In this document: piece after piece, positions 44,731 to 64,000 of the stretch
Layout of the letters: every line of letters begins with the position of its first letter
How positions within the stretch are numbered: position 1 is the stretch's first letter
Origin: Bacteroidia bacterium
GTDB taxonomy: Bacteria; Bacteroidota; Bacteroidia; DATLTG01
Assembly (NCBI GenBank): GCA_039924845.1
Contig: JBDTAC010000068.1
Coordinates: 925-64,924, forward strand
Direction of reading: 5' to 3'
Length of the DNA: 64,000 nt
Made by a program: the position numbers and the translations under genes
Notes under the pieces: generated by a model
The model's database searches: none
The model's input: only the letters and a program-made list of their open reading frames with translations
What the model was told of the DNA's origin: nothing

Positions 44731-44766
44731 ATGCAATTTATTTTGTATTTTTATCGAAAGAAAAAA

Positions 44767-47233: not shown

Positions 47234-47398
47234 GAAAATGAAAACGGGAAAGAAAAAATTTGATGCTGTGCAAATGACACGGGACATCAGAAACAAAATG
47301 GGTGAAAAGTACTATCAAAGCATAGACCTTTTATTGAAGGATATGGAGAAGGTGCGAAAAAAATATAAAATTACGTCTAAGACACAAAAAGCTGCTTA
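47228..47398 (+). CDS. small basic ORF (56 aa) overlapping the PIN gene stop; possible partner/antitoxin
   Basis: ATGA overlap with the PIN stop codon; MNKKMKTGKKKFDAVQMTRDIRNKMGEKYYQSIDLLLKDMEKVRKKYKITSKTQKAA. Below the ORF-track length cut-off. Confidence 0.35.
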
Positions 47399-47429
47399 GT
47401 ACTATATTTATTCTTGATTAAAATTGTTT

Positions 47430-47467
47430 AAAATCCATTCTCAAAAGGAATGGATTTTTTATTTTTA
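47430..47467 (+). terminator. rho-independent terminator-like hairpin (duplicate of 44693-44730)
   Basis: AAAATCCATTC-TCAAAAG-GAATGGATTTTTTATTTTT. Confidence 0.7.
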
Positions 47468-47503
47468 ATACAACTTTTTTTGTATTTTTATCAAAAGAAA
47501 AAA

Positions 47504-48376: not shown

Positions 48377-48385
48377 ACAGAGGCT

Positions 48386-48907
48386 GTGGACTCCTCGTTA
48401 AAACATAAAAACATTATGACCTTAAAAATTACCCTTAAAAACCAATTCGATGCCTTTAACTATCAAATTTTTGGGATTGTTATAATGGGTATTTATTTAT
48501 ATTTTTTTCCAGGTTTAGGATACTTAATAGCACTTACTTGTGGATGGTTATTTTCTGCTCTTCCTGCCATTTATTTACATATAGAATATTACTTAAGAAA
48601 CAAAGGAGAAGAAATTACCATAAATTTTGACGAACTAATTGTGAAAAAAAATGGTGTTGAAAAAAAATACAAAAACCAAGATTTTGAAAAAATAGTTGTG
48701 TACATGGCAGTATCGTACAATTTCGCCATTATAGGAATGCAGTATTATTTTTACACTCGCCTTATCACAACAAAAGGAGAAGAAATTATCATCACTTGTT
48801 TAATGACTCGAAAGATGGAAGAAGTATTAAAAACATTGGGTGCTCCTTATAAAATTAGTAGACTGCCCCTTTTTTACAGCTTGCGTTTTGGTCGGTTAAA
48901 AAAATAA
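48386..48907 (+). CDS. putative membrane immunity protein
   Basis: 173 aa with at least two TM helices (IFGIVIMGIYLYFFPGLGYLIALTCGWLFSALPAIYL); immediately downstream of cassette 4. Confidence 0.45.
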   Translation: MDSSLKHKNIMTLKITLKNQFDAFNYQIFGIVIMGIYLYFFPGLGYLIALTCGWLFSALPAIYLHIEYYLRNKGEEITINFDELIVKKNGVEKKYKNQDFEKIVVYMAVSYNFAIIGMQYYFYTRLITTKGEEIIITCLMTRKMEEVLKTLGAPYKISRLPLFYSLRFGRLKK

Positions 48908-50166
48908 TTTTTCAACCACCAATTATTGGAGAAAAAACAAGTTTCAAAAAATAATTTTTTCGAAAGCACTTTCTCAACAGATGCAATGACAGCATTTGCA
49001 ACGGTTTTGACTTGGTCATCTGTTAAATCATAAAAAACAGGCAAGGATATTTCACGCGAATAATTATCGAATGTAACAGGATAGTTTTTTACATCATATC
49101 CAAGCGATTTGTAAAAACTCATCATCGGAACGGGAATAAAATGCACGTTCACGGAAACATCTAAATCAAAAATAGATTGAATGATTTCGTCGCGTTGTGG
49201 TTCCGTAATTCCTTTTATCCGCAAAGGATATAAATGGAAGGAAGAAGTTTTCTCATTTGTATTTTGTTCTGGAATTTCTGCCCATTTGTGTTTGGAAAGG
49301 TATTGATTGTAAACAGAAATAATGTGTTTCCGTTTTACTAAGGTGTCGTTTTTATAACGCGCTAATTCTACTCTGCCAATGGATGCTGCGATGTCCGTCA
49401 TGTTGCATTTATAGCCGGGTTCTACAATATCGTAGCGCCAATTTCCTTTTTGTGATTTTGCCAGCGCATCTTTATTTTGTCCGTGCAAAGATTTTATGCA
49501 AAGCGATTGATACAAACTATCGTTATCAAAAGGAGCGGGAAAATTCAGTGCAATGGCGCCACCTTCGGCAGTAGTTAAATTTTTTACGGCATGAAAAGAA
49601 AAGACCGAAACATCTGTTAAACTGCCCGATGTACGGTTTTTATAAATCGCGCCAAACGAATGTGCTGCATCTGCGAGAATTAAAATACGACCTAATTTTT
49701 TTTGTTCTAAAGTATCTCCCGAAAATTTATTTTTCAAACGAATGACTAATTCATTTAATTCATCGTAATCACATGGAAATCCACCAAAATCCACTGGCAT
49801 AATTACTTTTGTTTTGGATGTAATTGCTTTTTCAATCGCAGAAATGGAAATATTAAAATCATTTTTATTCACATCCACAAAAACAGGAGTAGCGCCGCAG
49901 TGCATAATTACATTGGCAGTAGCGGCATACGTATAAGCTGGAAGAATAACTTCGTCGCCGGCTTTTACACCAAACCAACGCAACATTAATTCCATGCCTG
50001 CCGTAGCCGAATTTAAACACAGCGTGCTTTTGTTGCCGCAATAGTGTGTTATTTCTTTCTCGAAAAATTTTGTTTTCGGACCGGTGGTAATCCAGCCAGA
50101 TTGCAAGGCGAGCGTTACTTCGTCGATTATTTTTTGGTCGATGTGCGGAGGCGAAAATGGGATCAT
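48874..50166 (-). CDS. DegT/DnrJ/EryC1/StrS-family PLP-dependent sugar aminotransferase (ArnB-like)
   Basis: Start at MIPFSPPHIDQKIIDEV; PLP-lysine region (SFHAVKNLTTAEGGAI). The last ~25 codons are encoded by two copies of the palindromic motif (…KKLFFETCFFSNNWWLKNYFFNRPKRKL). Confidence 0.85.
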   Translation of the reverse strand: MIPFSPPHIDQKIIDEVTLALQSGWITTGPKTKFFEKEITHYCGNKSTLCLNSATAGMELMLRWFGVKAGDEVILPAYTYAATANVIMHCGATPVFVDVNKNDFNISISAIEKAITSKTKVIMPVDFGGFPCDYDELNELVIRLKNKFSGDTLEQKKLGRILILADAAHSFGAIYKNRTSGSLTDVSVFSFHAVKNLTTAEGGAIALNFPAPFDNDSLYQSLCIKSLHGQNKDALAKSQKGNWRYDIVEPGYKCNMTDIAASIGRVELARYKNDTLVKRKHIISVYNQYLSKHKWAEIPEQNTNEKTSSFHLYPLRIKGITEPQRDEIIQSIFDLDVSVNVHFIPVPMMSFYKSLGYDVKNYPVTFDNYSREISLPVFYDLTDDQVKTVANAVIASVEKVLSKKLFFETCFFSNNWWLKNYFFNRPKRKL

Positions 50167-50269
50167 AAAAAAAGTTTGAAAAGCAAAGGTATAAAACGAT
50201 TGAAAATGAAGAAACACTTTCGCTATAATCGGTCTTTTGTATAACTTTGTCTGCCAGAAAAATATTTTT

Positions 50270-52270
50270 ATGATTACAGCTCAAACAGAAATTCGGTTTA
50301 ACCGAAAAAAATACAAAGATTCTACCCTTCTTGCGCTCTACAATGGCTTACTGAAGCCGCGCATGATAGAAGAAAAAATGCTTTTATTACTTCGTCAAGG
50401 AAAAATTTCCAAATGGTTTTCGGGTATCGGACAAGAAGCTTCATCTGTGGGAGTGGCGATGGCATTGGAAAAAGAAGAATATATTTTGCCGATGCACCGC
50501 AATCTGGGTGTTTTTACTTCGCGTGAAATTCCTTTGAATCGTCTTTTTGCTCAATTTCAAGGGAAAGAAAGCGGCTTTACAAAAGGTAGAGATCGCTCGT
50601 TTCATTTCGGAACGCAGGAATATAAAATTATCGGAATGATTTCGCATCTCGGTCCGCAATTGGGGATTGCCGACGGAATTGCATTGGGGAATCTTTTGAA
50701 AAAAAACAATCAAGTAACAGCAGTTTATTCGGGTGATGGCGGCGCGAGCGAAGGTGATTTTCATGAATCGCTGAACGTGGCTGCTGTGTGGGATTTGCCA
50801 GTTATTTTTGTTGTGGAAAATAACGGTTATGGTTTGTCTACGCCTTCGAACGAGCAATTTCGTTGTAAACAATTTATTGATAAAGCCATTGGTTATGGGA
50901 TGGAAGGCGTGCAGGTAGACGGAAATAATGTGTTGGAAGTGTACGACACGGTTTTGAAAATTGCAGAATCCATTCGTAAACGTCCGCATCCGATATTGTT
51001 GGAATGTATGACGTTTCGTATGCGCGGACACGAAGAAGCGTCGGGTACCAAATATGTTCCGAAAGAATTGATGGAAGAATGGGGAAAAAAAGATCCTCTG
51101 AATAATTATGAAAAATATTTGTTGGAAGAAAGTGTGTTGACCGAAACGATTATTCAAGAATACCGCAGCGAAATAAAACAGGAAATTGATAAAGGCTTGG
51201 AAATTGCATACGCTGAAAACATCGTAAAGCCAGATGCGCAAAGAGAATTAGGTGATATGTACGCACCTTTTGCAAATGTTTCCGTTGCTCCGAAATCTGA
51301 AAAAAAATCAAGTAAACGTTTGATTGACGCTATTTCTGATGGTTTACGTCAGGCGATGAGAAAACATTCTGAATTGGTTTTAATGGGACAAGATATTGCG
51401 GAGTACGGTGGAGTTTTTAAAATCACGGAAGGCTTTTTGGCGGAGTTTGGAAAAGAGCGTGTGCGCAATACGCCTTTGTGCGAATCGGCGATTATCGGTT
51501 CTGGATTCGGCTTGTCTATCAACGGTTTTAAGGCAATGGTGGAAATGCAGTTTGCGGATTTCGTAACCTGTGGATTCAATCAAATTATCAATAATTTAGC
51601 GAAATCGCATTACCGTTGGGGACAAAATGCCGATGTGGTAATTCGTATGCCGACAGGTGCAGGCGTAGGAGCTGGACCGTTTCATTCTCAATCTAACGAA
51701 GCTTGGTTTTTTCATACACCCGGATTAAAAATTGTGTATCCTGCTTTTCCATCTGATGCAAAAGGTTTGTTGTTAGCAGCTTTTGACGATACAAACCCAG
51801 TTTTGTTTTTCGAACACAAAGCACTTTACAGAAGTATTTCGGAAGATATTTCGGATGATTATTATACGATTGAAATTGGAAAAGCAAAATTGTTGAAAAC
51901 AGGAACTCAACTTTCTGTTATTACCTACGGAATGGGCGTGCATTGGGCTTTAGAGATTTTGAATTTGCATCCTGAAATTTCTGCCGACTTGATTGATTTG
52001 CGAACTTTATTGCCTTACGACAAACAAGCTATTATTGATTCCGTGAAAAAAACTGGAAAAGCTTTGGTGTTGCACGAAGATACTTTTACAGGCGGAATTG
52101 GCGGCGAAATTGCCTCCATGATTTCTGAAAATTGTTTTGAAAGTCTGGATGCGCCAGTGGTGCGGAGCGCGAGTTTGGATACTCCCGTTCCGATGTCGGC
52201 AGAATTAGAAGCTGATTTTTTACCGAAAGAGAGATTTGAAAAACAATTAATAGCGCTTTTTAACTATTGA
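50270..52270 (+). CDS. fused 2-oxoacid dehydrogenase E1 component alpha/beta subunits (TPP-dependent)
   Basis: Alpha-subunit TPP motif (GDGGASEGDFHESLNVAAVWDLPVIFVVENNGYGLST) followed by the beta/transketolase-like domain in a single 667-aa ORF. Confidence 0.85.
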   Translation: MITAQTEIRFNRKKYKDSTLLALYNGLLKPRMIEEKMLLLLRQGKISKWFSGIGQEASSVGVAMALEKEEYILPMHRNLGVFTSREIPLNRLFAQFQGKESGFTKGRDRSFHFGTQEYKIIGMISHLGPQLGIADGIALGNLLKKNNQVTAVYSGDGGASEGDFHESLNVAAVWDLPVIFVVENNGYGLSTPSNEQFRCKQFIDKAIGYGMEGVQVDGNNVLEVYDTVLKIAESIRKRPHPILLECMTFRMRGHEEASGTKYVPKELMEEWGKKDPLNNYEKYLLEESVLTETIIQEYRSEIKQEIDKGLEIAYAENIVKPDAQRELGDMYAPFANVSVAPKSEKKSSKRLIDAISDGLRQAMRKHSELVLMGQDIAEYGGVFKITEGFLAEFGKERVRNTPLCESAIIGSGFGLSINGFKAMVEMQFADFVTCGFNQIINNLAKSHYRWGQNADVVIRMPTGAGVGAGPFHSQSNEAWFFHTPGLKIVYPAFPSDAKGLLLAAFDDTNPVLFFEHKALYRSISEDISDDYYTIEIGKAKLLKTGTQLSVITYGMGVHWALEILNLHPEISADLIDLRTLLPYDKQAIIDSVKKTGKALVLHEDTFTGGIGGEIASMISENCFESLDAPVVRSASLDTPVPMSAELEADFLPKERFEKQLIALFNY

Positions 52271-52364
52271 AAAAAATAATTTTCGGAAGCCTTTTTTTAA
52301 GAGTTGAATTTTAGATGAATCTTTTCCAAGAATACGCTAAATTTGAGGAAATTATTTTTCAGGA

Positions 52365-54959
52365 ATGGGCAAGCGCAGATTGCGATCAAAACTAATCGAA
52401 ACCTTCAGCAAAAAATCCGTTTGGCAAGTATTGCTGGCTTTGCTGATGCTTTCTTTGTGTTTGTTTTTCGTGAAAAATCAGCACTTGGAATTGGTCGCCA
52501 TTCAAGACAAATTAGAAAATGCCAATTTATTTTACGTAGGCATCGGATTTCTTTTTACCATTTTTTACATTCTGCTGCAAGGCTTGATGTATCAATACAG
52601 TTTTAAATCCATTTACCAAAAAGTGGGTTTAAAAACAGCTTGCATTTTATTTTTAAAACGAAATGTAGTGAGTGTTTTCTTGCCTGCCGGAGGTTTTTCT
52701 TCGCTCGCTTTTTTCACAAAACCCATCGAACAAAAAAATATTACGAAAACACAAATTCATTTTGCATCCTACATTTACGGGCTTTGCGGAATTGTTTCGG
52801 TCGCGGTTGTTGCCATCCCAACTTTGCTGTACATGCTTCTCAAAAACAGCATTACGTCCAACGAAATGTTCGCTTTTGGGGGATTGATTTTACTGATTTT
52901 TATTTTAGTTTTCGCTGCTTATTCTTTGATGAAAGAAGGAGTCGTGTATCGCTTTGTCATTCGCTACGTACCTGATTTAGCAATGATTTTAGATGAACTT
53001 CGAAATCAAAAAGTAAGTAAGAAAAATTTTATTTTAGTAAATATTCTTTCCTTTTTTATCGAAGTAGTCGGTATTGCGCACGTGTATATCGCCATGTTGG
53101 CACTCGGTATTTCACCTTCATTCGAAGCCGCCATAATTGCCTATGTGGTGATGGTGATGTTACTCATTGTTTCTCCATTTTTGCGCGGCATGGGAGCCAT
53201 CGAAGTAACCATGACGTACACTTTGGTTCAATACGGATTTACTACTATTGGCGCAGCTTCTGTAACATTATTATTTCGGTTTTTCGAATTTTGGTTGCCG
53301 CTTTTAACAGGCGCTGTTACGTTTATTTTAAAGAAAGATAATTTACTATTGCGCATTTTGCCTTCCATCATTATTTTAATTCTCGGCATCATTAATATTA
53401 TTTCTGCCATCACTCCATCTATACCAGCACGATTGCATTTGCTGGAAAGTATTTTGCCTTTGGATGTCATCAATATTTCTAATTTTTTAGTAATTGTTTT
53501 TGGATTTATGTTGATTATTTTATCCATGTATTTGTTACGAGGTGTAAAAACTGCGTGGTGGTTGGCGGTTGTGATTACTGCCTTATCCGTTTTGGGACAC
53601 ATCGCAAAAGCCTTTGATTACGAAGAAGCCACGCTTGCGCTGATATCTTGCGCAGCACTTATTTACACGAAAAAACAATATTCTGTGAAACCTGATCCAC
53701 GTTTGGCACGACTCAGTATTACTACTTTTTTAATCACTTTTGCCTGTGTTTTTTTATACGGAATTCTCGGATTTTATTTTTTAGACAAACGACATTTCCA
53801 AATAGATTTTTCGTGGACGGCATCTATAAAAACATTTTTGAAAATATTCTTTTTATTTGATGCCGGAGAACTCCATCCACACACAAAATTTGCGCGAAAT
53901 TTTTTATTTTCTATTTATTTCTTTGGCTTTGCAGCCATTTCGTTTGTGCTGTTCAGTATTTTGCGACCTTTTGTGAAAGACCAACAATCGGAAGAAAGTG
54001 AGGTAGATGAAGCGGAAAAATTAGTACAGAAATATGGAAAATCATCGCTCGATTATTTCAAAACTTATTTGGATAAATATTTCTTTTTTACTGCCGATCG
54101 CGAAGCATTTATTTCTTATAAAGTCGGCGGAAATTATGCCATTGTATTGGAAGATCCAGTTTGTGCCGATGTAAACAAAATGACAGAAGCCATTGTCGAA
54201 TTTGAAAAATATTGTCGTGACAATGGACTGAAAGCGCTTTATTATCGAGTTCCAGAAGCCAGTTTGCCGATTTATACTTCATTGAAAAAAAAGCATTTAA
54301 TTATTGGTCAAGAAGCCGTTTTGGATCTTTCTACATTTAGTTTGCAAGGTGGAAAAATGAAATCCATTCGCAATGCGATTAAGAAAGTAGAAACTTCGGG
54401 TTATCATTTAAAAATACACGAAGCGCCTGTAAAGGATGGCGTTTTGCAAAAATTAAAATCTGTTTCAGACGAATGGTTGAAGGATAATAATAGAGATGAA
54501 TTGTATTTATCGCAAGGTATTTTTGATTTCGAAACTTTGAAAATAACGCCTATTTTGACTGTTGAAAATGCGGAAGAACAAGTAGTGGCTTTTGTAAATA
54601 TAATGCCAGATTATTTTCCAGAAAGTGGCACGTACGATTTAATTCGAAAAACAAATGCGGCGCCCAACGGCTCACTCGATTTTTTAATGGTGAGTATGTT
54701 TGAGTATTTTAAAACAAAAAATATTCGCTACGTAAATTTAGGTTTGGCAACACTTTCAGGAATTGAAAAAGGCGAAAACTTTACGGAAAAAACAATGAAA
54801 TTCGCTTACGAAAATATTCGCTCCTTTTCACATTACAAAGGCTTGAGAGATTACAAAGAAAAATTTGGACCCGACTGGAAAAATAAATTTTTGATTTATG
54901 ATAACAGTTACGATTTATTGCAAATACCCAGCGCCATTTCGAAAGTTACAAAAGAATAA
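52365..54959 (+). CDS. MprF-like bifunctional aminoacyl-phosphatidylglycerol synthase/flippase (LPG_synthase_TM + DUF2156)
   Basis: About 14 N-terminal TM helices plus a 330-aa C-terminal soluble domain of the phosphatidylglycerol lysyltransferase type. Confidence 0.7.
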   Translation: MGKRRLRSKLIETFSKKSVWQVLLALLMLSLCLFFVKNQHLELVAIQDKLENANLFYVGIGFLFTIFYILLQGLMYQYSFKSIYQKVGLKTACILFLKRNVVSVFLPAGGFSSLAFFTKPIEQKNITKTQIHFASYIYGLCGIVSVAVVAIPTLLYMLLKNSITSNEMFAFGGLILLIFILVFAAYSLMKEGVVYRFVIRYVPDLAMILDELRNQKVSKKNFILVNILSFFIEVVGIAHVYIAMLALGISPSFEAAIIAYVVMVMLLIVSPFLRGMGAIEVTMTYTLVQYGFTTIGAASVTLLFRFFEFWLPLLTGAVTFILKKDNLLLRILPSIIILILGIINIISAITPSIPARLHLLESILPLDVINISNFLVIVFGFMLIILSMYLLRGVKTAWWLAVVITALSVLGHIAKAFDYEEATLALISCAALIYTKKQYSVKPDPRLARLSITTFLITFACVFLYGILGFYFLDKRHFQIDFSWTASIKTFLKIFFLFDAGELHPHTKFARNFLFSIYFFGFAAISFVLFSILRPFVKDQQSEESEVDEAEKLVQKYGKSSLDYFKTYLDKYFFFTADREAFISYKVGGNYAIVLEDPVCADVNKMTEAIVEFEKYCRDNGLKALYYRVPEASLPIYTSLKKKHLIIGQEAVLDLSTFSLQGGKMKSIRNAIKKVETSGYHLKIHEAPVKDGVLQKLKSVSDEWLKDNNRDELYLSQGIFDFETLKITPILTVENAEEQVVAFVNIMPDYFPESGTYDLIRKTNAAPNGSLDFLMVSMFEYFKTKNIRYVNLGLATLSGIEKGENFTEKTMKFAYENIRSFSHYKGLRDYKEKFGPDWKNKFLIYDNSYDLLQIPSAISKVTKE

Positions 54960-55047
54960 GTTTTTTCTTTTCGAAAAAATGATTTAAAAAAATAATTTTT
55001 CAATTCGAAATTTTGACTTCAAAAAGAGGCTTCAAAAAAATAATTTT

Positions 55048-57027
55048 TCAAAAGCGAATATCTTCTTCGTGATGGATTATTTTTTGAGCGGAAAGTTTTT
55101 GATACTTCTTATATTTTTCGATGTTTCCTTTTTTCAAAAAATAATTTTCTAAAAAACGACAATCTACATTATTTATAGAATCTGTACGAACAGCGATTTC
55201 GTAGTAATCTGCCGTTTTCAGAGAATCGTTTTTCCATAAATAAATGGTTCCTAAATTGGAGTAAATGGCTGCCGATTTTATTCCTTTATCTAAAGCTCCA
55301 TAATTGAGCGCAAAAGCAGCATCGTAAAATTCGTGATGTAAATATAAATTGGTCAAACTGACGTAAGCGGGCATAAAATGAGGGTTTAATGCAATGGATT
55401 TTAAAAAATATTTTTCTGAAAGACTGTCGTTGCCAAGTAAATGTTCGCAAGTGGCAAGGTTAAAAAACGCGACGACATAATTCGTATCCACTTCCACGGC
55501 TTTCTGCAAAAGCGGCAGTGCGGCAGAATCGTTTTTTTCAAAAATCATCTCTGCTTTTCCAAGGTCATTTAGCGAAGTCCTATCGTCGGGATAAATTCCC
55601 AAAATAGTTTTGTAGGAAGCAATTGCAGCATTTTTTAATTGCTCTTTGGTTTGTCCTGTCGTGTTATCGTCAGCGTAATAATATTCCAAGCATTTAGTAG
55701 CATATAGTTGTTGTAAATGGACGGATTTTTCGGCAACAACAATATCGTGAGAATATAAGGTATAATGATTTTTCCAATCAAAATTTCGTGCAATGGTCCG
55801 TACTGAAAATAAAACTAATACGATAGAAATAGTAAATAAAAAAGGACGATTCAGTTTCAAAAGTCTTACTTGATGTGATGTATAAGAGATTTTAAAAATC
55901 TCCAATAATCCGATTGCCAATAAAATACAAAGACCCAATGAAGGAATGTATGCGAAACGTTCAGCGACAATCCCAACAGCAGGAACCAAAATATTAAGGA
56001 ACATAGAAATCGAAATAAAAAAATAAAGAATACCAAATGCAAAAACCTTTTTTTTCTTTAATCCAATAAATGCCAAGATGAGAAAAGAGACGACGATTAT
56101 AAGCGACATTATAAGAATCATTTTATTCGGATACAAAATATCCACTTGGTTGTAGCCGTAATAACAAATTAATTTTTTCGGGAAAACGAATAGTTGAATA
56201 TACCAAAAAAAAGTAGCCAATGCGGCAATTCCCCGTGTGGCATATCCACGTATAAAATACAAAGGGTTTTCGATGTACCCCAAAACCCGATGTTTTGGAA
56301 TTCCGAATAATAATTTTTTTTGTATCAATATAAAAACGATTACCGAAAGTAGTAAACATCCAAAACAAATAACTAATTGCTTCCAATTACATTTGCCGAA
56401 AAAGTAGAGGAATAAGGGAATAATTACGATAAACGTCATGGCATCAATTTTAGAGGCCATCGCTACAATGAATGTAATTCCTCCCAAAAAAATATTTTTA
56501 ACACGATTGGTTTCTGCATATTTTATAAAAAAATATGCAGACAAAATAGAGCTAAAAAAACTAAATAATGCGTCTCTGTTTTTTAAACTATCTACTACTT
56601 CAGCATGGATAGGATGCACCAAAAACAGTGTAGTAACGAGCAGTGGCAAGAGAATGGAATAATTTTTAAATAATTTTTGCAGGAATAAAAAAAGAAAAAT
56701 ACACGTAAATGCATAAATCAGAATATTTATAAAATGACTGATGTGTGGATTTTCGCCAAACAGCGAATATTCCATTGCAAAACTGACTTTGACGATGGGG
56801 CGATATCCATAATCTTCATTTTCTGCGTGCGAATAACGCGTGGTAAATATCTCAGGAATTGCTTTTATCCCTTGATGAATTTGAGCATTTTGGTAAATAA
56901 CAAGCTCATCGTCCAGTGCATATCCATTACGAATGCTGTTTCCATAAACCAGAAAGCAAAGAACTCCCAGAAAAATGCAAATTTTCAGTTTCTCACTTTT
57001 TAAACAATGGATTAGTTGATTTTTCAT
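55048..57027 (-). CDS. TMTC/DUF1736-type polytopic membrane protein with C-terminal TPR repeats (GT-C, PMT/ArnT-like glycosyltransferase candidate)
   Basis: N-terminal YGNSIRNGYALDDELV...GYRPIVKVSFAMEYSLFGENPHISHFINILIYAFTC (DUF1736/PMT_2-like); about 11 TMs; TPR repeats in the last 250 aa. Confidence 0.6.
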   Translation of the reverse strand: MKNQLIHCLKSEKLKICIFLGVLCFLVYGNSIRNGYALDDELVIYQNAQIHQGIKAIPEIFTTRYSHAENEDYGYRPIVKVSFAMEYSLFGENPHISHFINILIYAFTCIFLFLFLQKLFKNYSILLPLLVTTLFLVHPIHAEVVDSLKNRDALFSFFSSILSAYFFIKYAETNRVKNIFLGGITFIVAMASKIDAMTFIVIIPLFLYFFGKCNWKQLVICFGCLLLSVIVFILIQKKLLFGIPKHRVLGYIENPLYFIRGYATRGIAALATFFWYIQLFVFPKKLICYYGYNQVDILYPNKMILIMSLIIVVSFLILAFIGLKKKKVFAFGILYFFISISMFLNILVPAVGIVAERFAYIPSLGLCILLAIGLLEIFKISYTSHQVRLLKLNRPFLFTISIVLVLFSVRTIARNFDWKNHYTLYSHDIVVAEKSVHLQQLYATKCLEYYYADDNTTGQTKEQLKNAAIASYKTILGIYPDDRTSLNDLGKAEMIFEKNDSAALPLLQKAVEVDTNYVVAFFNLATCEHLLGNDSLSEKYFLKSIALNPHFMPAYVSLTNLYLHHEFYDAAFALNYGALDKGIKSAAIYSNLGTIYLWKNDSLKTADYYEIAVRTDSINNVDCRFLENYFLKKGNIEKYKKYQKLSAQKIIHHEEDIRF

Positions 57028-57039
57028 TTGCTCAAAAAC

Positions 57040-59055
57040 TTATTCTGAAATGGGAGATGGCGGAATTATTTTCTCATCTTGTTGCAACAAATTTTCATAT
57101 TCATTGTATTTAATTACATCATTTTTACGAAGGTAATACTGCGCTAAAAAACCACAAAGCGCTTCGTTTCCTGGATTTATACGCATCGCTTCATCGTATT
57201 CAGTCATTGCCTTTGTTGTATCCTTTTCGTAAATATATACATTCCCAATATCAATATACGGAACTTCCGACTTAACGCCTCTGCTGATAGCGGTATCGTT
57301 TATGGCGAGCGCTTTTTCATATTGTTTTCGGCTGCAATAAATCATACTTAAATTACTGTACGGATTCACAAATTCGGGTCTTAACGCAATAGATTTTAAA
57401 TAATATTTTTCAGCTTCTCCGTATTTTTTTTCAATCTGATAAATAGATCCGATGTTGAAATAAGCCTCTACGTAAGTGGAATCACACGCAATCGTTTGCT
57501 TCATCAAATCAATCGCTTTGGCGTAATCTCCAGAATACATCACGTAAGCAAGCCCTAAATTATGCAATGCCGATGCGTATTTCGGATAAATAGAAATCGC
57601 TTTTTCGTAATGCAAAATTCCGGATTCTATCCAATTTTTTTTAAGATCATTATCAGATGTTTTTTTTGCTTGTTCCATACATATTGCTGCATATAGCGCA
57701 TTTAATTTCGCCGAATTGTCAGCAATTTTCACATCGTGTGTGTATAAAGAGAAATGGTTTTCCCAATCTGGATTACGTGCAATAACACGTATGGAAGAGA
57801 AAAATACAAGTAAAAAAACGAGGCTTAAAAAGCTTTTCTTCCAAAAATTTATTTTGCTTTCGCGAAGCGTAAAAGGAATTTGAAATATACGAAATAACAA
57901 TACACTTATTACGATGCAAAAACCGAGTGAAGCAATGTATGAAAAACGCTCTGCCACAATCCCTACCGCAGGAATAAGGATATTTAAAAACATGGAAATG
58001 GAGATAAAAAAATAGAAAATTCCGAATGCTAAAATATCCTTTTTTCGAAAATTTATAAAAGCATAAGCGATTGCTGTTATTGATACAAGTACGCTAATCA
58101 ATACCATAAAAAAATTTGGATGTAAAACTTCAATTTGATTGTATCCGTAATAGGAAATTAAGGTTTTAGGGAAGCACAACAATTTTATATAAAAGAAAAA
58201 TGAAACGCATCCGGCGCCCAATCGGGTTAAAAGAGTATGATTGAAATAAAGTGGGTTTTCAAAATACAAAAAATGACGAACACCATGTTCTGTGTGAAAC
58301 AAAATGTGCTGCCAGAGTGATGAAATAATAAGTGCAAATAGTATTCCTACGACTATAAAAATTATTTTTTTGCCACCAGTTTCTGTAAAAAAATAAACCG
58401 TTAAAGGAATAATTATTAAAAAAGGAAGCACATCAATTTTAGAAAGTAGCGCAAATAAGAAAAAAAATATTCCGCCACTAAAAGCTCTTATTTTTCCGAA
58501 TTCTGCGTAGCGTATAAAAAAATAAAGTGCTACAAGAACGCTAAAAAAACTAAACAAGACATCTCTGTTTTTTAAACTGTCCACCACTTCTGTGTGTGCC
58601 GGATGCACGAGAAAAAAAGTACTGATTAAAAAAGGTAGAGCAATGTGGTAGTTAAAAAGTATTTTTTTCAATAGGAAAAAAAGAAAAATGCACGTAAAGG
58701 CATAAAGCAAAATATTAATCAGATGGCTGATGTGAGGGTTTTCGCCAAACAATGAATTTTCTATCGCAAAGCTCGCCTTTACGATGGGGCGATAACCAAA
58801 TTGTTCGCCATTATTATAGTGCGTAATGTAATGTGAGGTAAAAATTGCAGGAATATCATTAATGCCTTGAGCAGGCTGCCCATTAAAATGAGTAACCAAT
58901 TCATCGTCTAGCGAATACTTATTGGAAATGCTGTTCCCATATAGAATAAAAGCAAATGCGATGAAATAGATAAAAGTTTTTAGCCGAAAAAATCGAGTAT
59001 TAGGTACGGTGTTAACTAAAACTTTTTCAGGCTTCTTTTTTTTACTCTTATCCAT
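57040..59055 (-). CDS. second TMTC/DUF1736-type TPR membrane protein (tandem paralogue)
   Basis: Same architecture; about 45% identical to 55048-57027 (YGNSISNKYSLDDELV...GYRPIVKASFAIENSLFGENPHISHLINILLYAFTC). Confidence 0.6.
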   Translation of the reverse strand: MDKSKKKKPEKVLVNTVPNTRFFRLKTFIYFIAFAFILYGNSISNKYSLDDELVTHFNGQPAQGINDIPAIFTSHYITHYNNGEQFGYRPIVKASFAIENSLFGENPHISHLINILLYAFTCIFLFFLLKKILFNYHIALPFLISTFFLVHPAHTEVVDSLKNRDVLFSFFSVLVALYFFIRYAEFGKIRAFSGGIFFFLFALLSKIDVLPFLIIIPLTVYFFTETGGKKIIFIVVGILFALIISSLWQHILFHTEHGVRHFLYFENPLYFNHTLLTRLGAGCVSFFFYIKLLCFPKTLISYYGYNQIEVLHPNFFMVLISVLVSITAIAYAFINFRKKDILAFGIFYFFISISMFLNILIPAVGIVAERFSYIASLGFCIVISVLLFRIFQIPFTLRESKINFWKKSFLSLVFLLVFFSSIRVIARNPDWENHFSLYTHDVKIADNSAKLNALYAAICMEQAKKTSDNDLKKNWIESGILHYEKAISIYPKYASALHNLGLAYVMYSGDYAKAIDLMKQTIACDSTYVEAYFNIGSIYQIEKKYGEAEKYYLKSIALRPEFVNPYSNLSMIYCSRKQYEKALAINDTAISRGVKSEVPYIDIGNVYIYEKDTTKAMTEYDEAMRINPGNEALCGFLAQYYLRKNDVIKYNEYENLLQQDEKIIPPSPISE

Positions 59056-59168
59056 CCATCTATTTTTTTGAAGAGAAACAAATTTCGTTAATAATTGCTA
59101 ACCTCCAAATTTTATATTGCTTCTATCAAAAAAAATGTATTTTTGTTTATACTGAATTTTTTTAAATT

Positions 59169-60176
59169 GTGAACGCCTACATCAAAGCCATCAGTTATTA
59201 TTTACCTGAAAAAATATTTTCGAATGAAGAGTTTTTTTCAATTTTCACAACTATTTCCAATAAAGAAAATTTAGAAAAAATTGGTGTTCGAGAAAGGCGA
59301 ATAGTGGAAAATTCTGTTACTTCCTCTGATATTGCCATCGAAGCAGCAAACATTTTCTTTAATGAGCATTCCATCGATAAAAGTGAAATTGATTTTTTGC
59401 TTTTTTGTTCGCTGGAATTAGATTATTACACGCCATCTACAGCTTGTATTATTCAAGAAAAATTAGGCTTGTCGCAGCATTGTGGAGCGCTTGATTTTAA
59501 TCTTGGCTGTAGCGGATATGTATATGGATTGAGCATTGCAAAAGGGTTAGTCGAAACAGGCGCGGCGAAAAATATATTGTTATTGACGGCATCTACACTC
59601 ACAAAAAAAATTCATCCGAAAGACAAAGGTTCTCGTTTTGTTTTTGGCGATGGAGCCGCCGCAACGCTTATTTCAGGAAGAGAAAAAAAAGGAATCGAAA
59701 AATTTATTTTTGGAACGGACGGAAAAAGGTTCGAAAAAATAATCGTGAAAGATGGAGGTGTTCGCAATCCGATTTCCGAAAAATCTTTTATAGATACTAC
59801 AGATGAATACGGAAATACTAGTAACTCCGCCAGTTTTTACATGGATGGCACGAGCGTTTTTATTTTTGGTTTAAAGAAAGTTCCAGAAATGGTAAAAAAT
59901 TTATTGGAAAAATCGAATAAACAAATCGAGGATATAGATTTGTTTATTTTTCATCAAGCCAATTTATATTTGATAGAAAAAATCAGAGAAAAATTAAAAA
60001 TTCCGGAAAAAAAAATTTTTAATTATATGGAAAATTGTGGAAATACAGTTTCGTCTACCATTCCAATCGCTTTGTATGAAGCCATAAAAGCAGGAAAAGC
60101 AAGCCCTGGAAAAAATATTTTTTTGGCAGGCTTCGGTGTAGGATTATCCTGGGCGGCTACAATTATTCAACTCTAA
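59169..60176 (+). CDS. 3-oxoacyl-ACP synthase III (KAS III, FabH-like)
   Basis: Active-site Cys in LGCSGYVYG; His/Asn in HQANLYLIEK and CGNTVSSTIPIAL. Confidence 0.85.
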   Translation: MNAYIKAISYYLPEKIFSNEEFFSIFTTISNKENLEKIGVRERRIVENSVTSSDIAIEAANIFFNEHSIDKSEIDFLLFCSLELDYYTPSTACIIQEKLGLSQHCGALDFNLGCSGYVYGLSIAKGLVETGAAKNILLLTASTLTKKIHPKDKGSRFVFGDGAAATLISGREKKGIEKFIFGTDGKRFEKIIVKDGGVRNPISEKSFIDTTDEYGNTSNSASFYMDGTSVFIFGLKKVPEMVKNLLEKSNKQIEDIDLFIFHQANLYLIEKIREKLKIPEKKIFNYMENCGNTVSSTIPIALYEAIKAGKASPGKNIFLAGFGVGLSWAATIIQL

Positions 60177-60208
60177 TTTAATTTGTATTTTTACAAAAAA
60201 CAGAACTT

Positions 60209-60439
60209 ATGAATATCAACGATTTTATCACACAAATAGAGAACGAAATCGAGGAAATTACGCCTGGAAGTTTGAAGTCAGAAACAGTATTTAGAAATCT
60301 TCCAGAATGGAGTTCGATGCATGCGCTGATTATTATTGCCTTGATTGATATCGAATACGATGTAACCATTACTGGCGAAGATTTACGAAAAAGCACTACC
60401 ATTTCAGACCTCTTTCAAATTGTGAAAAGCAAAAAATAA
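60209..60439 (+). CDS. acyl carrier protein-like
   Basis: 76 aa, acidic, helical; candidate phosphopantetheine site in ...NLPEWSSMHALIII; located between two KAS III genes. Confidence 0.65.
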   Translation: MNINDFITQIENEIEEITPGSLKSETVFRNLPEWSSMHALIIIALIDIEYDVTITGEDLRKSTTISDLFQIVKSKK

Positions 60440-60440
60440 A

Positions 60441-61496
60441 ATGGCTTTTTTATCTGTTAAAAATATAAAGATAGCCGGCATTGCAGCTTGCGTTCCAAAA
60501 AACGAAGAGTCGAATTTGGATTACGATTGGATTTCTTTGGCGGAACGAGAATTGCTTATTAAGACAACCGGAATTGCAAAGCGCAGAGTGGCACTTGATG
60601 GATTGTGTACTTCAGATATGTGCTATGCTTCGGCAAATACTTTGTTTCAAGAATTGAATATTGATAGAAGCGAAATAGACATTGTGATTTTTGTTTCGCA
60701 ATCCCCTGATTATTTTTTACCTGCTACCAGTATTATTTTGCAAGATCGATTGCAATTACCCAAAACTACAATGGCTTTTGATATGCAATTGGGTTGTTCT
60801 GGATATGTTTATGGTTTATCGGTTATCAGCAATTTGATGAACGCGAATAAGTTTCGAAAAGGATTATTAATGGTGGGTGATAAATCCAGTTTCTCTCAAT
60901 CGAAAAAAGATAAAAGTACCTATCCTATTTTTGGAGATGCGGGAACTGCTACGCTTTTAGAATACAATGAAAAAGCGGATCAAATGGATTTCAATTTACA
61001 AAGTGACGGCTCAGGATATAAAGCGATTATTATTCCTGACGGTGGCACTCGCAGCCCTTACAACAAAGATTCTGAAACAATGGTTGAGATTGAAAAGGGT
61101 ATTATACGTAGCCGTAAAAATTTAGTATTGGATGGCTTGGAAGTATTTAATTTTTCCTTACGGGAAGCAACCCCCAATATAAATAATTTACTAAAACACA
61201 TTGGCAAAACAACAGCCGATTTCGATTATTTTCTATTTCATCAAGCCAACAAATTGATGAACGAAAGCATTCGAAAAAAATTAAAAATAGCTCCTGAAAA
61301 AGTGCCATACTCTCTAACAAATTACGGCAATACAAGTTCAGCATCTATCCCATTAACAATTGTTACAGAATTAACTGAAAAAATAAAAAATAAAAAAATA
61401 TCTTTGTTATTATCAGCATTTGGTGTAGGTTTATCTTGGGGTTCGGCTACCTTGAAAACAGAAAATTTAATTTGTCCAAAATTAATAGAGCTATAA
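60441..61496 (+). CDS. second KAS III-like 3-oxoacyl-ACP synthase
   Basis: LGCSGYVYG, HQANKLMNE, YGNTSSASIPL motifs. Confidence 0.8.
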   Translation: MAFLSVKNIKIAGIAACVPKNEESNLDYDWISLAERELLIKTTGIAKRRVALDGLCTSDMCYASANTLFQELNIDRSEIDIVIFVSQSPDYFLPATSIILQDRLQLPKTTMAFDMQLGCSGYVYGLSVISNLMNANKFRKGLLMVGDKSSFSQSKKDKSTYPIFGDAGTATLLEYNEKADQMDFNLQSDGSGYKAIIIPDGGTRSPYNKDSETMVEIEKGIIRSRKNLVLDGLEVFNFSLREATPNINNLLKHIGKTTADFDYFLFHQANKLMNESIRKKLKIAPEKVPYSLTNYGNTSSASIPLTIVTELTEKIKNKKISLLLSAFGVGLSWGSATLKTENLICPKLIEL

Positions 61497-61497
61497 A

Positions 61498-62244
61498 ATG
61501 ACACCTTTTCATCTCTTCAAAAAAAAAATTTTTGTAACGGGCGCTTCTTCTGGAATCGGCCGGCAAATTGCCATTAGCATTACGGAAATGGGGGGAAGCG
61601 TTATTATAAGTGGAAGAAATTTAGAACGATTGGAAGAAACAAAAAAGATGTTAAAAGGGAATGATAATGTAATTATCTCTGCGGACTTATTAAGAGAAAA
61701 CGATATCGAAAATTTAACAGAAAAGATAGCACCTGTTGATGGTATAGTCAATTGCGCGGGTGTTGTAAAACCCTTTCCGATAAAATTTATTACTCAAGAG
61801 AAAATAGACGAAACTTTTCAACTCAATTATAAATCACAAGTATTATTGATTTCGCAATTGATGCGTAAGAAAAAAATAAATAAAAATGCGGCGATTGTTT
61901 TTTTATCATCGGTTTCAGCAGAACATCCACACAGAGGAGGCTCACTTTATGCAGGATCAAAGGCAGCCATTGAAGCATTCAGTAAAGTCTGTGCATTGGA
62001 GTTCTATTCGCAAGGCATACGTTCAAATTGTTTGGTGCCAGCAATGGTAAAAACGCCCATGTATGATTCTGCCGAAAAAGATGCATCTAAAGAAACGATG
62101 GATGAACATATCAATAAATATCCACTTGGAGTGGGTGATCCAAAAGACGTTGCCAATGCAGCTGTTTTTTTACTCTCCGAAGCATCGCGTTGGATGACTG
62201 GAACAACTATTATTTTAGATGGAGGCTTTTTACTCGGAAAATAA
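61498..62244 (+). CDS. SDR-family oxidoreductase (FabG-like 3-oxoacyl-ACP reductase)
   Basis: TGASSGIGRQIA Rossmann motif; catalytic YAGSK; NAG-like NCAGVV. Confidence 0.85.
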   Translation: MTPFHLFKKKIFVTGASSGIGRQIAISITEMGGSVIISGRNLERLEETKKMLKGNDNVIISADLLRENDIENLTEKIAPVDGIVNCAGVVKPFPIKFITQEKIDETFQLNYKSQVLLISQLMRKKKINKNAAIVFLSSVSAEHPHRGGSLYAGSKAAIEAFSKVCALEFYSQGIRSNCLVPAMVKTPMYDSAEKDASKETMDEHINKYPLGVGDPKDVANAAVFLLSEASRWMTGTTIILDGGFLLGK

Positions 62245-63172
62245 CATGGAAAAATCTTACATCTCTGTCATAATACCCGTTTTCAATAGTGAGCGCAATT
62301 TGCAAGAACTTTTTCAACGCATTGATGCCGCTTTTTCAAAATTAGAAAACTCGTATCAATTAATTTTGATAGACGATGGTAGCTCCGATAAAAGTTGGCT
62401 GGAAATTGACAAATTAAAACGAGAAAATCCATCGAAAATAATTGGTATTAAATTGGCTAAAAATTTCGGGCAGCACAATGCTATTTTGTGCGGCTTCCAT
62501 TTTTGCAAAGGCGATTTGGTACTTACCATGGACGATGATTTACAACATCCTCCAGAAGAGATTGAAAAATTAATTTTTCGACAAGAACAAACAAATGCCG
62601 ACGTAATTTATGGTATCCCGATAAATAAAAAACATGCTGCTTGGCGCAATGTAGGAAGTAATCTGATGAAAAAAACTTCCGAATATTCTACCAAAAAAAT
62701 TTCAGGTGGTTCTGCCTTTCGCCTTATCAATCGTACTATTACCGATGAAATAAAAAACAATCAACATACTAATTTTTTATTTTTAGATACCATTATCAAC
62801 TGGTACACAAGTCATATCGAATTGGTGGATGTAGATCATCATCATCGTAAAGCTGGAAAATCAGGATATACCTTTTTCAAATTAATACAGATGTACCTAA
62901 ATATTACCATTAATTATACGGCAACGCCTTTAAAATTAATGACCTATGGAGGCTTGTTTTTTTCTATTATTACATTTATTTTTGGTGTACATTTTATCGC
63001 AAAAAAAATATTGCATCACGCCCCTTTGGGTTATACTTCTATTATTGTAAGTGTTTTATTTGGCACGAGTCTTATTTTATTTTGTCTTGGAATCATTGGT
63101 CAGTATTTGTATAAATTATACCAATTACAAAATAAAAAGCCTCCTTATGCTATTCAAAAAGTTTTAAAGTGA
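62219..63172 (+). CDS. family-2 glycosyltransferase (polyprenol-phosphate sugar transferase, ArnC/GtrB-like) with C-terminal TM anchor
   Basis: SVIIPVFNSERNL; DDGSSD; DDDLQHP (DxD); two C-terminal TM helices. Confidence 0.85.
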   Translation: MEAFYSENNMEKSYISVIIPVFNSERNLQELFQRIDAAFSKLENSYQLILIDDGSSDKSWLEIDKLKRENPSKIIGIKLAKNFGQHNAILCGFHFCKGDLVLTMDDDLQHPPEEIEKLIFRQEQTNADVIYGIPINKKHAAWRNVGSNLMKKTSEYSTKKISGGSAFRLINRTITDEIKNNQHTNFLFLDTIINWYTSHIELVDVDHHHRKAGKSGYTFFKLIQMYLNITINYTATPLKLMTYGGLFFSIITFIFGVHFIAKKILHHAPLGYTSIIVSVLFGTSLILFCLGIIGQYLYKLYQLQNKKPPYAIQKVLK

Positions 63173-63852
63173 GAATTCATAAATACGGAATTACATTAAC
63201 TCGCTTAAAGGCGGATGATCTTGAATTGGTGAGGATAAAGCGCAACTCACAAGATATTAGCAGCGTGATGCAATACCAGGAAATAATTACGCCGGGAATG
63301 CAACAAAAATGGTTCGAATCCATTAATACCATATACCATAACTATTTTATCATTCATTATCAAGGTGAGAAAATTGGCTTGATAAACGGCAAAAACAGCG
63401 ATTACGAAAAACGAACTTCCGAAGGCGGAATGTTTGTTTGGGATAAACAATACTGGGGAACCATCATTCCTGCGATGTGTTCTGTTATCATGTCTGACCA
63501 CGCTTTTTTGATTTGCGGGTACAAAAAAAATTACATTAAAATTTTAAATTCCAACCAAAAAGCAATTGTGTATAACAAGCAAATTGGATACGTTCCTACA
63601 AAAGATTATGCGTCTGATAAAGATGTTCAATGGTTTGAATTGACCAAAGAAAAATATGAAAAACACGTCGTGAAAATTAGGAAGGCAATCGGTATTATTA
63701 CGAATGATTTTTCACCGCTTACGATTGAAAATATTGATTTTAAAGATGATTCAGATGAGGAAATTAAAGTGTTATACAAACCTCTCCCCTCATTTATTCG
63801 AGAAAACATTGCGAATATTATTTTAAAGCGAGAAGGCAGAAATATTCTTTGA
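63169..63852 (+). CDS. hypothetical protein (possibly an acyltransferase-like fold); last gene of the KASIII-ACP-SDR-GT2 operon
   Basis: 227-aa ORF whose start overlaps the GT2 stop; no confident motif. Confidence 0.35.
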   Translation: MRIHKYGITLTRLKADDLELVRIKRNSQDISSVMQYQEIITPGMQQKWFESINTIYHNYFIIHYQGEKIGLINGKNSDYEKRTSEGGMFVWDKQYWGTIIPAMCSVIMSDHAFLICGYKKNYIKILNSNQKAIVYNKQIGYVPTKDYASDKDVQWFELTKEKYEKHVVKIRKAIGIITNDFSPLTIENIDFKDDSDEEIKVLYKPLPSFIRENIANIILKREGRNIL

Positions 63853-63868: not shown

Positions 63869-64000
63869 TCAAAATTTATTTTTTTGAGCTTTTTTCATTT
63901 TGTCAATTTGTTTCGAATAATAATTGATGTATCCGAACCATTCGTACATTTTTTTGCTGGACAAATGAAAAAAATCTCGTATAAAAAAAGGCAGCTTGTA
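63869..64000 (-). CDS. 3' end of a minus-strand CDS running off the window edge (unknown function)
   Basis: Open frame from 64000 down to TGA (reverse complement of 63869-63871): ...YEWFGYINYYSKQIDKMKKAQKNKF*. Confidence 0.3.
   Translation of the reverse strand, partial: YKLPFFIRDFFHLSSKKMYEWFGYINYYSKQIDKMKKAQKNKF

Follow-up and report, generated by a model that had tools for sequence, protein, structure and literature searches.

The stretch of DNA analysed here (hereafter the window) comprises 64,000 nucleotides of contig JBDTAC010000068.1, from the assembly GCA_039924845.1 of a Bacteroidia bacterium. Its GNAT, FabH2 and TPR proteins, described below, match NCBI/Logan entries of a 68-kb contig at 100% identity. 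In a preliminary description, the region from 48874 to 63852 had been presented as a single envelope-modification cluster uniting a DegT aminotransferase, a sugar transferase of glycosyltransferase family 2 (GT2), two polytopic proteins with tetratricopeptide repeats (TPR), an MprF-like protein and a module of two 3-ketoacyl synthases, an acyl carrier protein (ACP) and a ketoreductase (KR). Gene content was established from an open reading frame (ORF) listing together with Pfam and NCBIfam scans, and every gene named in that description was found in its place with the domains ascribed to it. Omitted from it were a GNAT N-acyltransferase, a sulfotransferase, an oxygenase and a 2-oxoacid dehydrogenase E1 gene. 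The 15 kb region is not one unit. Approximately half of it is a conserved, uncharacterised gene set of uncultured Bacteroidota, and the real unit is a divergent operon pair that occupies approximately 55.0-64.0 kb and reaches about 2 kb past the end of the window. Its genes within the window are as follows (KAS III, 3-ketoacyl-ACP synthase III; GT-C, glycosyltransferase of the C fold; TM, transmembrane; SDR, short-chain dehydrogenase/reductase; PAPS, 3'-phosphoadenosine 5'-phosphosulfate).

55048-57027, minus strand: TMTC-like GT-C paralog a, 659 aa, with about 9-11 N-terminal TM helices and C-terminal TPR
57040-59055, minus strand: TMTC-like GT-C paralog b, 671 aa, assigned from motifs, an AlphaFold2 (AF2) model and DUF1736/PMT_2 matches
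59169-60176, plus strand: KAS III no. 1 (FabH1), 335 aa, with ACP_syn_III and ACP_syn_III_C domains
60209-60439, plus strand: dedicated ACP, 76 aa, with weak NCBIfam ACP matches and a conserved Ser
60441-61496, plus strand: KAS III no. 2 (FabH2), 351 aa, core gene, with Pfam/NCBIfam matches and an invariant triad
61498-62244, plus strand: SDR ketoreductase (KR), FabG-like, 248 aa, core gene, with adh_short_C2 and KR domains
62246-63172, plus strand: ArnC/GtrB-like GT2, 308 aa, core gene, with a Glycos_transf_2 domain
63169-63852, plus strand: GNAT N-acyltransferase, 227 aa, core gene, PseH/FdhC/SpeG-like
63869-64000, minus strand: 3' end of a PAPS-type sulfotransferase (Sulfotransfer_1/3), the last ~43 codons and stop

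The gene for GT-C paralog b is divergent from the KAS operon, with a spacer of 113 bp between them. Within the operon, FabH1, ACP, FabH2 and KR are separated by gaps of 32, 1 and 1 bp, the GT2 gene starts 1 bp 3' of the KR stop codon, and the GT2 stop and GNAT start overlap by 4 bp. The ACP, FabH2, KR, GT2 and GNAT genes are a translationally coupled core, and the operonic arrangement of the KAS III-ACP-KAS III-KR module with the ArnC-like GT2, as claimed in the preliminary description, is confirmed by these abutting and overlapping start and stop codons. Downstream, the convergent sulfotransferase gene has only 132 nt within the window; it spans window position 63869 to approximately 64957 on the source contig (locus L001, 13429-14517, minus strand) and is followed by a Cupin_8 oxygenase and then by Kup, YqeY, FtsZ and FtsA. 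A scan of 48.5-64 kb for sigma-70 promoters and intrinsic terminators, which did not cover Bacteroidota promoters, returned 55 and 13 candidates, compared with 57 and 12.4 in shuffled sequences. Since these counts match the shuffles, they carry no information on operon boundaries.

Related loci were collected by exact look-ups of GNAT and FabH2 homologs, by searching 185,579 species genomes with an alignment of the GNAT (from which the best 80 loci were taken) and by a metagenome scan with the window DegT, which yielded 80 loci. To compare neighbourhoods, a tblastn matrix and gene strings were drawn up, and all neighbouring ORFs were clustered de novo. Loci of at least 20 kb carrying the cassette family were treated as full loci (n=37), and loci of the same phylum served as controls (n=21). 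The best 80 genomic loci all derive from metagenome-assembled genomes, nearly all of them labelled Bacteroidota. The core of ACP, FabH2, KR, GT2 and GNAT was kept in 37/37 full loci. A PAPS sulfotransferase, often in two copies, was present in 31/37 full loci and in 0/21 controls (Fisher 9e-11), while a TPR/GT-C protein of the window family was found within a 10-kb range in 20/37 full loci compared with 2/21 controls (Fisher 7.5e-4), both tests being made over loci of shared ancestry. The linkage of the KAS operon to TMTC/PMT-like GT-C proteins across genomes, also part of the preliminary description, is thus upheld. The GT-C gene is directly divergent from FabH1 in L001, L002, L008, L010, L012, L016 and L017. 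Additionally, a 2-oxoglutarate (2OG) oxygenase, either Cupin_8 or OlsC/LpxO-like Asp_Arg_Hydrox, stands beside nearly every window-like locus. This survey divides the cluster of the preliminary description: the KAS/ACP/KR/GT2/GNAT core, the sulfotransferase and the TPR/GT-C proteins are linked above controls, whereas MprF, E1 and the window DegT are not. Searches of the literature on this gene combination, on bacterial TMTC homologs and on Bacteroidota O-mannosyltransferases found no account of this cluster.

The operon is not uniform at its 5' end. FabH1 is limited to approximately 23 loci (21 full-length FabH1-type ORFs), mostly of a window-like 'type A'. A universal six-gene cassette was considered and rejected, as the matches of 33-36% identity to 'FabH1' in Bacteroidales-type loci proved by reciprocal assignment to be cross-hits of FabH2. 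In 'type B' loci (Bacteroidales, Lentimicrobium), FabH1 gives way to a fusion of a fatty-acyl-AMP ligase with a carrier domain (FAAL-ACP); L030, L032, L043, L047, L057, L060 and L077, for example, hold one to three genes for FAAL-carrier proteins. The cassette shows a modular exchange between KAS III priming and FAAL priming. Type B loci often add a PhpK-like B12 radical-SAM enzyme, and either Wzx-like flippases with a WecE-type DegT or a DltB-like MBOAT protein with a partner of unknown family. This partner is a conserved protein of 335-380 aa that belongs to no known family (e.g. L030:12044-13189), and the pair points to a further acylation outside the cytoplasm. The core operon of 10 type B loci is adjoined, mostly just upstream of FabH2, by a protein of ~460 aa with a C-terminal sorting domain of the type IX secretion system (T9SS), as in L036, L037, L041, L049, L053-L055, L061 and L076 (L055:5016-6497). 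It might serve as an acceptor that is secreted, or as a processing enzyme.

The acyl module was examined by comparison with E. coli FabH, using a reference sequence verified to be identical to PDB 1hn9. FabH1 matches the NCBIfam model NF006829 at 270.8 bits (cut-off 249), and the Cys-His-Asn triad (Cys112, His244, Asn274) is invariant in both FabH1 and FabH2. Phe87 restricts E. coli FabH to short primers; its equivalent is T, G, A or V in FabH1 and I or L in FabH2. FabH2 is 52-76% identical across loci and has replaced the residues of E. coli FabH that contact the CoA adenine (W32, R151) and dock the ACP (K214, R249). Loss of the CoA-binding residues fits the extension of an ACP-bound acyl group, and the exchange of FabH1 for FAAL likewise suggests that FabH1 only supplies a starter on the ACP, which FabH2 then extends. 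The ACP gene lies invariably directly 5' of FabH2, and the serine aligned with Ser36 of AcpP, within a W-x-S motif, is kept in all 62 loci examined. The KR (adh_short_C2 3e-46, KR 1.3e-10) possesses the TGxxxGxG and YxxxK motifs. A module of this kind has been described in Flavobacterium psychrophilum, where the predicted product of wfpC-D-E-F-G is N-(3,5-dihydroxyhexanoyl)-Qui2NAc4N (PMC6519341). This precedent of the same order and sizes, itself a prediction, lends support to the preliminary suggestion of a hydroxyacyl group for N-acylation of an amino sugar. By analogy with wfpC-F the chain would be C6; greater weight on the exchange for FAAL, on the OlsC-like hydroxylase and on the small residue 87 of FabH1 would favour a longer one.

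The GT2 (Glycos_transf_2 6e-28) carries 'DDGSSD' and 'MDDDLQH' in its translation, and hydropathy places a C-terminal TM hairpin at helices 246-264 and 275-293. Its best relatives in the PDB are ArnC (1.9e-44), GtrB (1e-37, residues 6-307) and dolichyl-phosphate mannose synthase (DPMS, 5e-21). Among NCBIfam models it scored 180.7 bits for ArnC, against a cut-off of 529, and 133.4 bits for PgfS. An analogy with Nod-factor synthesis (NodE/F/G, NodC, NodH) was rejected, as the GT2 is of ArnC/GtrB type and its match to NodC (3.7e-8) covers the N-terminus only. Profile comparison of the GNAT with the PDB returned SpeG (2e-11), FdhC (2e-9) and PseH (1.6e-7), the FdhC match covering residues 10-179. 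Compared with PseH and FdhC, the GNAT has a C-terminal helical extension of ~70 residues. For the AF2 model (pLDDT 95), the top Foldseek match was PseH (4ri1, E 1.3e-12), followed by SpeG entries that fill most of the list; the NCBIfam PseH score of 41.9 bits is under the cut-off of 93.1. FdhC moves a 3-hydroxybutanoyl group onto a dTDP-amino sugar, as work from the Holden laboratory established.

When 1.8 billion representative proteins were searched with a profile, 442 family clusters were gathered at E<=1e-30, two of which (P0436 and P0441) are fusions of GT2 and GNAT. P0436 aligns with both the catalytic domain of the window GT2 (1e-27) and the GNAT (2e-34). Its locus (L170 8001-12968) holds the core genes in a different order, with GT2 and GNAT as a single polypeptide (fusion-ACP-KAS III-KR-B12 radical SAM), near glycoside hydrolases and a SusD-like gene. 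The fusion and the invariant adjacency of the two genes elsewhere argue that both enzymes act on one nucleotide-sugar substrate. Relatives of the GNAT that are 40-44% identical also occur without any cassette gene (L005/L006 10001-10756, L079 10001-10615), indicating that the GNAT family is wider than the cassette. In L005, the stand-alone GNAT has T9SS-tailed proteins and a two-component system as neighbours.

Among solved structures, the sulfotransferase is closest to the sulfotransferase domain of CurM (1.9e-7), that of an olefin synthase (OLS) and tyrosylprotein sulfotransferases (TPSTs); its match to NoeE spans the PAPS loop only. The sulfotransferase of CurM sulfonates ACP-bound 3-hydroxyacyl groups. 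Conservation of sulfotransferases points to an anionic modification, adding negative rather than positive charge. A Wzx/MOP-type flippase was found in 30 related loci, mostly of Bacteroidales type, and thioesterases were not among the recurrent neighbour families of the cassette loci.

The two GT-C paralogs are 43% identical. Paralog a has a YALDD motif at residue 35 and matches Pfam PMT_2 (9.5e-5) and TPR; the AF2 model of paralog b (pLDDT 89.9) shows a TM bundle at 20-431 and a TPR solenoid at 434-663. In both proteins the Pfam TPR matches lie in the last third (~460-660), a domain that the logic of the DD loop would place outside the cytoplasm. Family alignments of 20 and 44 sequences revealed invariant D50-D51, Y88-R89-P90 and H151-P152-x-H154-x-E156, and the DD motif is present in all 26 complete GT-C proteins of the locus set. 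Human TMTCs possess a DD motif, a 'SHKSYRP' motif and a 'HPIHT' segment (PMC7801869), to which the DD, YRP and HPxHTE of the GT-Cs correspond. The window proteins score under the Pfam gathering thresholds (PMT_2 23.1 vs 26.1; DUF1736 16-18 vs 27), while in the family 14/20 sequences match TMTC_DUF1736 (best 3.5e-8) and 9/20 match PMT_2 (best 1.7e-8). A homolog search returned 944 relatives; many homologs bear precomputed PF13231 or PF08409 annotations, and some are named 'protein O-mannosyl-transferase' or 'GT39'. No described function of bacterial TMTC homologs was found in the literature searched.

The remainder of the 15 kb region lies on the other side of the GT-C genes.

48874-50166, minus strand: DegT aminotransferase, 430 aa; the ORF runs to 50217, the true start being the ATG at 50166
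50237-52270, plus strand: 2-oxoacid dehydrogenase E1 alpha-beta fusion, 677 aa, with E1_dh, Transket_pyr and Transketolase_C domains
52365-54959, plus strand: MprF-like aminoacyl-phosphatidylglycerol synthase/flippase, 864 aa, with LPG_synthase_TM and LPG_synthase_C domains

These genes are neighbours and not parts of the conserved system. The DegT, described previously as ArnB-like, scored 262.8 bits for ArnB (cut-off 631) and 294.6 bits for PseC (cut-off 423.5), below both thresholds. Its orthologs, 47-72% identical, have a PglC-type Bac_transf gene nearby in 56/80 loci, directly adjacent in 49, and their loci also hold PglF-like dehydratases, GT1s and Wzy; the cassette, MprF and E1 were present in 0/80 of them. 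Conversely, tblastn with family representatives detected no Bac_transf/PglC, PglF-like, GT1 or Wzy gene in the 64-kb window. In its gene context the window DegT is not ArnB-like and is best described as a PglE/WcfR/PseC-like orphan of a polysaccharide-locus family, and its recruitment to the cassette is not supported, nothing having been found in its favour. A different DegT accompanies the cassette in 15 loci; these proteins are 39-65% identical to one another and 26-29% to the window DegT, and match the NCBIfam model for dTDP-4-amino-4,6-dideoxygalactose transaminase (414.6 vs cut-off 375). This WecE-type enzyme is the sole aminotransferase recurrently linked to the cassette.

The MprF-like protein (LPG_synthase_TM 1e-20, LPG_synthase_C 2.2e-61; bifunc_MprF 554.9 bits vs cut-off 600) was found near the cassette in 0/37 full loci. 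An ortholog of the E1 fusion was near the cassette in none of the loci surveyed. A full-length paralog of E1 alpha-beta, 31-32% identical, lies directly 3' of GNAT on the same strand in two loci (L018 10762-12858, L020 10722-12809). This, along with a distance of 7 kb between the window E1 and the cassette, hints that a thiamine-pyrophosphate (TPP) enzyme is occasionally linked, perhaps for primer supply. The E1 fusion was rejected as the primer supplier of the KAS module, with no ortholog linked and the distant paralog confined to two loci; it is a lead and not a claim.

Further upstream, the interval 38341-48907 separates the DegT from housekeeping genes; with its succession of plus-strand genes and its high AT skew, it looks like a defence or mobile island. 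Several of its ORFs have no family match; those with a match are listed here.

38341-39525, plus strand: type II methyltransferase-like
39570-41414, plus strand: weak mad8 match
43421-44347, plus strand: GHKL ATPase
44307-44672, plus strand: DUF4325 STAS-like ORF, overlapping the GHKL ATPase
46787-47233, plus strand: PIN gene

Elsewhere in the window, a GldG-like ABC_transp_aux gene (27384-29081) and a T9SS-tailed esterase (20440-21696) were noted. They show that the organism possesses machinery for gliding and type IX secretion, which could deliver modified surface proteins.

We propose that the cassette encodes a lipid-carrier route, similar to those of Arn and Gtr, for an N-(hydroxyacyl) and probably sulfated amino sugar, with TMTC-like delivery probably to envelope proteins. 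We hold this reading tentatively, at somewhat less than an even chance, and we infer the product, the acyl length and the acceptor from the gene linkage and enzyme families that were observed. On the dedicated ACP, FabH1 would carry out the condensation of malonyl-ACP with an acyl-CoA primer, and the KR would reduce the 3-keto group. FabH2 would then run a second round on the ACP-bound product, with renewed reduction by the KR, to give a 3-hydroxy- or 3,5-dihydroxy-acyl-ACP. The sulfotransferase and the Cupin_8/OlsC-like oxygenase may act in the cytoplasm to modify the acyl chain or the sugar. The GNAT would place the acyl group on the amine of a nucleotide-activated amino sugar, which in loci with a linked DegT would be a dTDP-4-amino-4,6-dideoxyhexose, and the GT2 would load the acylated sugar onto polyprenyl phosphate. 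After flipping, the two TMTC-like GT-Cs would pass the sugar to acceptors chosen by the periplasmic TPR, most likely Ser or Thr residues of envelope proteins. The acylated amino sugar on a polyprenol carrier and its periplasmic transfer, both foreseen in the preliminary description, are consistent with a GNAT of PseH/FdhC/SpeG type in the operon. A more specific claim, that this is the first bacterial TMTC-type protein glycosylation with a co-encoded donor pathway, in which a single amino sugar bearing a sulfated, polyhydroxylated acyl group is placed on envelope or surface proteins, we regard as somewhat unlikely.

A number of observations weigh against the lipid-carrier route. With respect to the sugar, a DegT lies within 10 kb in only 9/37 full loci (15 overall), the 64-kb window holds no copy of the WecE-type DegT, and the best solved matches of the GNAT include the SpeG polyamine acetyltransferases. 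With respect to the carrier, no small polytopic ORF that might be a flippase of the GtrA, ArnE/F or GtcA type was seen in 55-64 kb or just downstream, and the P0436 and P0441 fusions are without the TM hairpin of the GT2, so that not every variant need use polyprenyl phosphate as its acceptor. With respect to transfer, 17/37 full loci are without a GT-C within 10 kb, and the loci share ancestry, such that the Fisher tests overstate independence. Furthermore, a PDB search with the profile of the GT-C TM domain gave zero matches at E<=10, the full profile was swamped by TPR proteins, and Foldseek with the GT-C model returned TPR proteins only. The putative GT-C assignment rests on sub-threshold Pfam matches, motifs and topology.

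The wider reading of the preliminary description takes all 15 kb as one envelope-remodelling supercluster, in which an Arn-like acyl-amino sugar and lipid aminoacylation together set surface charge and resistance to cationic peptides. The genes are physically close and all are envelope-related by domain; moreover, a DegT less than 9 kb from the cassette is improbable by chance and, in the absence of its usual PglC partner, could have been recruited. Against this stand the counts given above for MprF (0/37), for the E1 ortholog (0/37) and for DegT orthologs with the cassette (0/80), as well as four separate transcription directions. The expected role in surface charge and antimicrobial-peptide resistance had been borrowed from the Arn and MprF analogies, while the sulfotransferases favour negative charge. 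The supercluster is thus largely refuted by the gene-neighbourhood survey, and we consider it very unlikely. Alternatively, the acyl module and the GNAT might serve to N-acylate a small amine such as a polyamine or an amino acid, giving a sulfated, hydroxylated amphiphile or signal without any amino sugar, the GT2 either glycosylating this product or serving a separate target. SpeG is the strongest sequence match of the GNAT (2e-11) and fills most of the Foldseek list, most loci are without a DegT, and the FAAL-ACP swap, the OlsC/LpxO-like acyl 2-hydroxylase and the small residue 87 of FabH1 suggest a chain of the fatty type. We nevertheless find this unlikely. By fold the closest match is PseH, FdhC matches over the longest stretch, the only recurrent aminotransferase is of the WecE type, and the GT2-GNAT fusion and invariant adjacency imply a shared nucleotide-sugar substrate. 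Furthermore, we know of no small-amine acceptor for a GT2 of the ArnC/GtrB type.

The cassette could also be an accessory module of an O-antigen or capsule pathway, similar to wfpC-G, whose sugar enters an undecaprenyl-diphosphate-linked repeat unit and is polymerised, with the TPR/GT-C proteins being unrelated or acting as ligase- or polymerase-like factors. The gene order and sizes are those of wfpC-F, a Wzx-like flippase occurs in 30 loci and a WecE-type DegT in 15. Recurrent neighbours, however, include no phosphoglycosyltransferase (Bac_transf, WecA), no Wzy and no series of GT1/GT4 enzymes; the only recurrent glycosyltransferase is the ArnC/GtrB-type enzyme that loads a monosaccharide onto polyprenyl phosphate, and the window cassette lies amid housekeeping genes (Kup, FtsZ, FtsA, MreB and others). 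This makes the O-antigen module quite unlikely. Finally, GNAT-type loaders are known in curacin-like pathways, and the GNAT might accordingly be a malonyl decarboxylase and loader for chain initiation, as in CurA, with the sulfotransferase acting as in CurM to yield a decarboxylated or eliminated lipid. The sulfotransferases of CurM and the olefin synthase are indeed the best solved relatives of the cassette enzyme. Yet the PDB profile matches of the GNAT are amine N-acyltransferases only and include no loader, the loci contain no thioesterase, and the GT2 fusion would be left unexplained; a loading GNAT is therefore extremely unlikely. A role as a malonyl-ACP decarboxylase of the MadA type was rejected, given that the decarboxylase activity of MadA resides in a hot-dog domain and not in a GNAT (PMC8666670), while the GNAT here matches amine acyltransferases.

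If the more specific claim of TMTC-type protein glycosylation is true, the cassette would produce an anionic lipo-glyco modification from a private mini fatty-acid synthase, for which there is no described counterpart. The lipid-carrier route itself would extend the logic of Arn and Gtr, whereby a sugar is acylated, loaded onto a lipid and transferred outside, to a sugar bearing a purpose-built N-acyl group, assembled on a dedicated ACP and probably sulfated. The cluster also ties TMTC-like enzymes to a specific donor-building operon and so provides a testable hypothesis on what they transfer. For annotation, the lesson is that MprF, DegT and E1, plausible envelope genes beside the cluster, are bystanders.

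Comparison with the lipid-carrier systems Arn, Gtr, CsbB-GtcA-YfhO and Ppm1-Pmt reveals a common plan of a GT2 with a C-terminal TM hairpin and a linked GT-C with a periplasmic DD. In Arn the sugar is N-acylated before it is loaded onto the carrier, and the cassette would do likewise. In contrast to Arn, Gtr and CsbB, the GT-C of the cassette is TMTC-like and carries TPR, rather than being ArnT, GtrC or YfhO; sulfotransferases and 2OG oxygenases are additional components, and a flippase gene is absent from the window. Unlike in Arn, the N-acyl group would come from the KAS III/ACP/KR module by way of the GNAT and not from a formyltransferase. ArnA and ArnD are absent from the scanned 38-64 kb ORFs, from the L001 flank and from the recurrent neighbours, and ArnEF is also lacking. 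Judged by family models, the cassette is not a member of the Arn pathway, with the DegT below the ArnB model, the GT2 below the ArnC equivalog and the GT-Cs bearing the TPR that ArnT, a GT83 enzyme, does not have.

The likeness to wfpC-F is one of order and size: both have KAS III-ACP-KAS III-KR, of 333-76-350-242 aa in F. psychrophilum and 335-76-351-248 aa in the window. In wfpC-G, as in the window, an acyltransferase comes next, which would take the acyl group off the ACP and place it on the amine of a sugar. The wfp enzyme is PglD-like, with a left-handed beta-helix, whereas that of the window is a GNAT. Moreover, the wfp genes reside in a Wzy-type O-antigen locus with PglC, while those of the window accompany an ArnC-like GT2, a sulfotransferase, an oxygenase and TMTC-like GT-Cs. 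PseH and FdhC share the fold of the GNAT, and the WecE-type transaminase of the cassette loci parallels the pairing of WecE with WecD; here, the donor would presumably be an acyl-ACP rather than an acyl-CoA, and SpeG scores equally well. The relationship of the sulfotransferase to those of CurM and the olefin synthases, its best solved relatives, is weak (E 2e-7), with TPSTs near-equal and no thioesterase partner here. The ACP-bound 3-hydroxyacyl groups that are the substrates of CurM-type enzymes are what the KAS/KR module would make.

For the GT-Cs, the closest counterparts are the eukaryotic TMTC1-4, protein O-mannosyltransferases of the GT-C/PMT clan. The window proteins resemble them in having ~11 TM helices ahead of a TPR domain (lumenal in TMTC1-4), a DD motif in loop 1 and the YRP and HPxHTE motifs, as well as a putative DUF1736-like loop that scores under the gathering threshold. 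In Pseudomonas aeruginosa, TfpW, a GT-C with 11 TM helices and TPR, glycosylates pilin with D-arabinofuranose (D-Araf), the genes of the D-Araf pathway being homologous to the mycobacterial decaprenyl-phosphate route (bioRxiv 10.1101/2020.04.19.049825). Compared with TMTC1-4 and TfpW, the donor used by the window GT-Cs is probably neither mannose nor arabinose.

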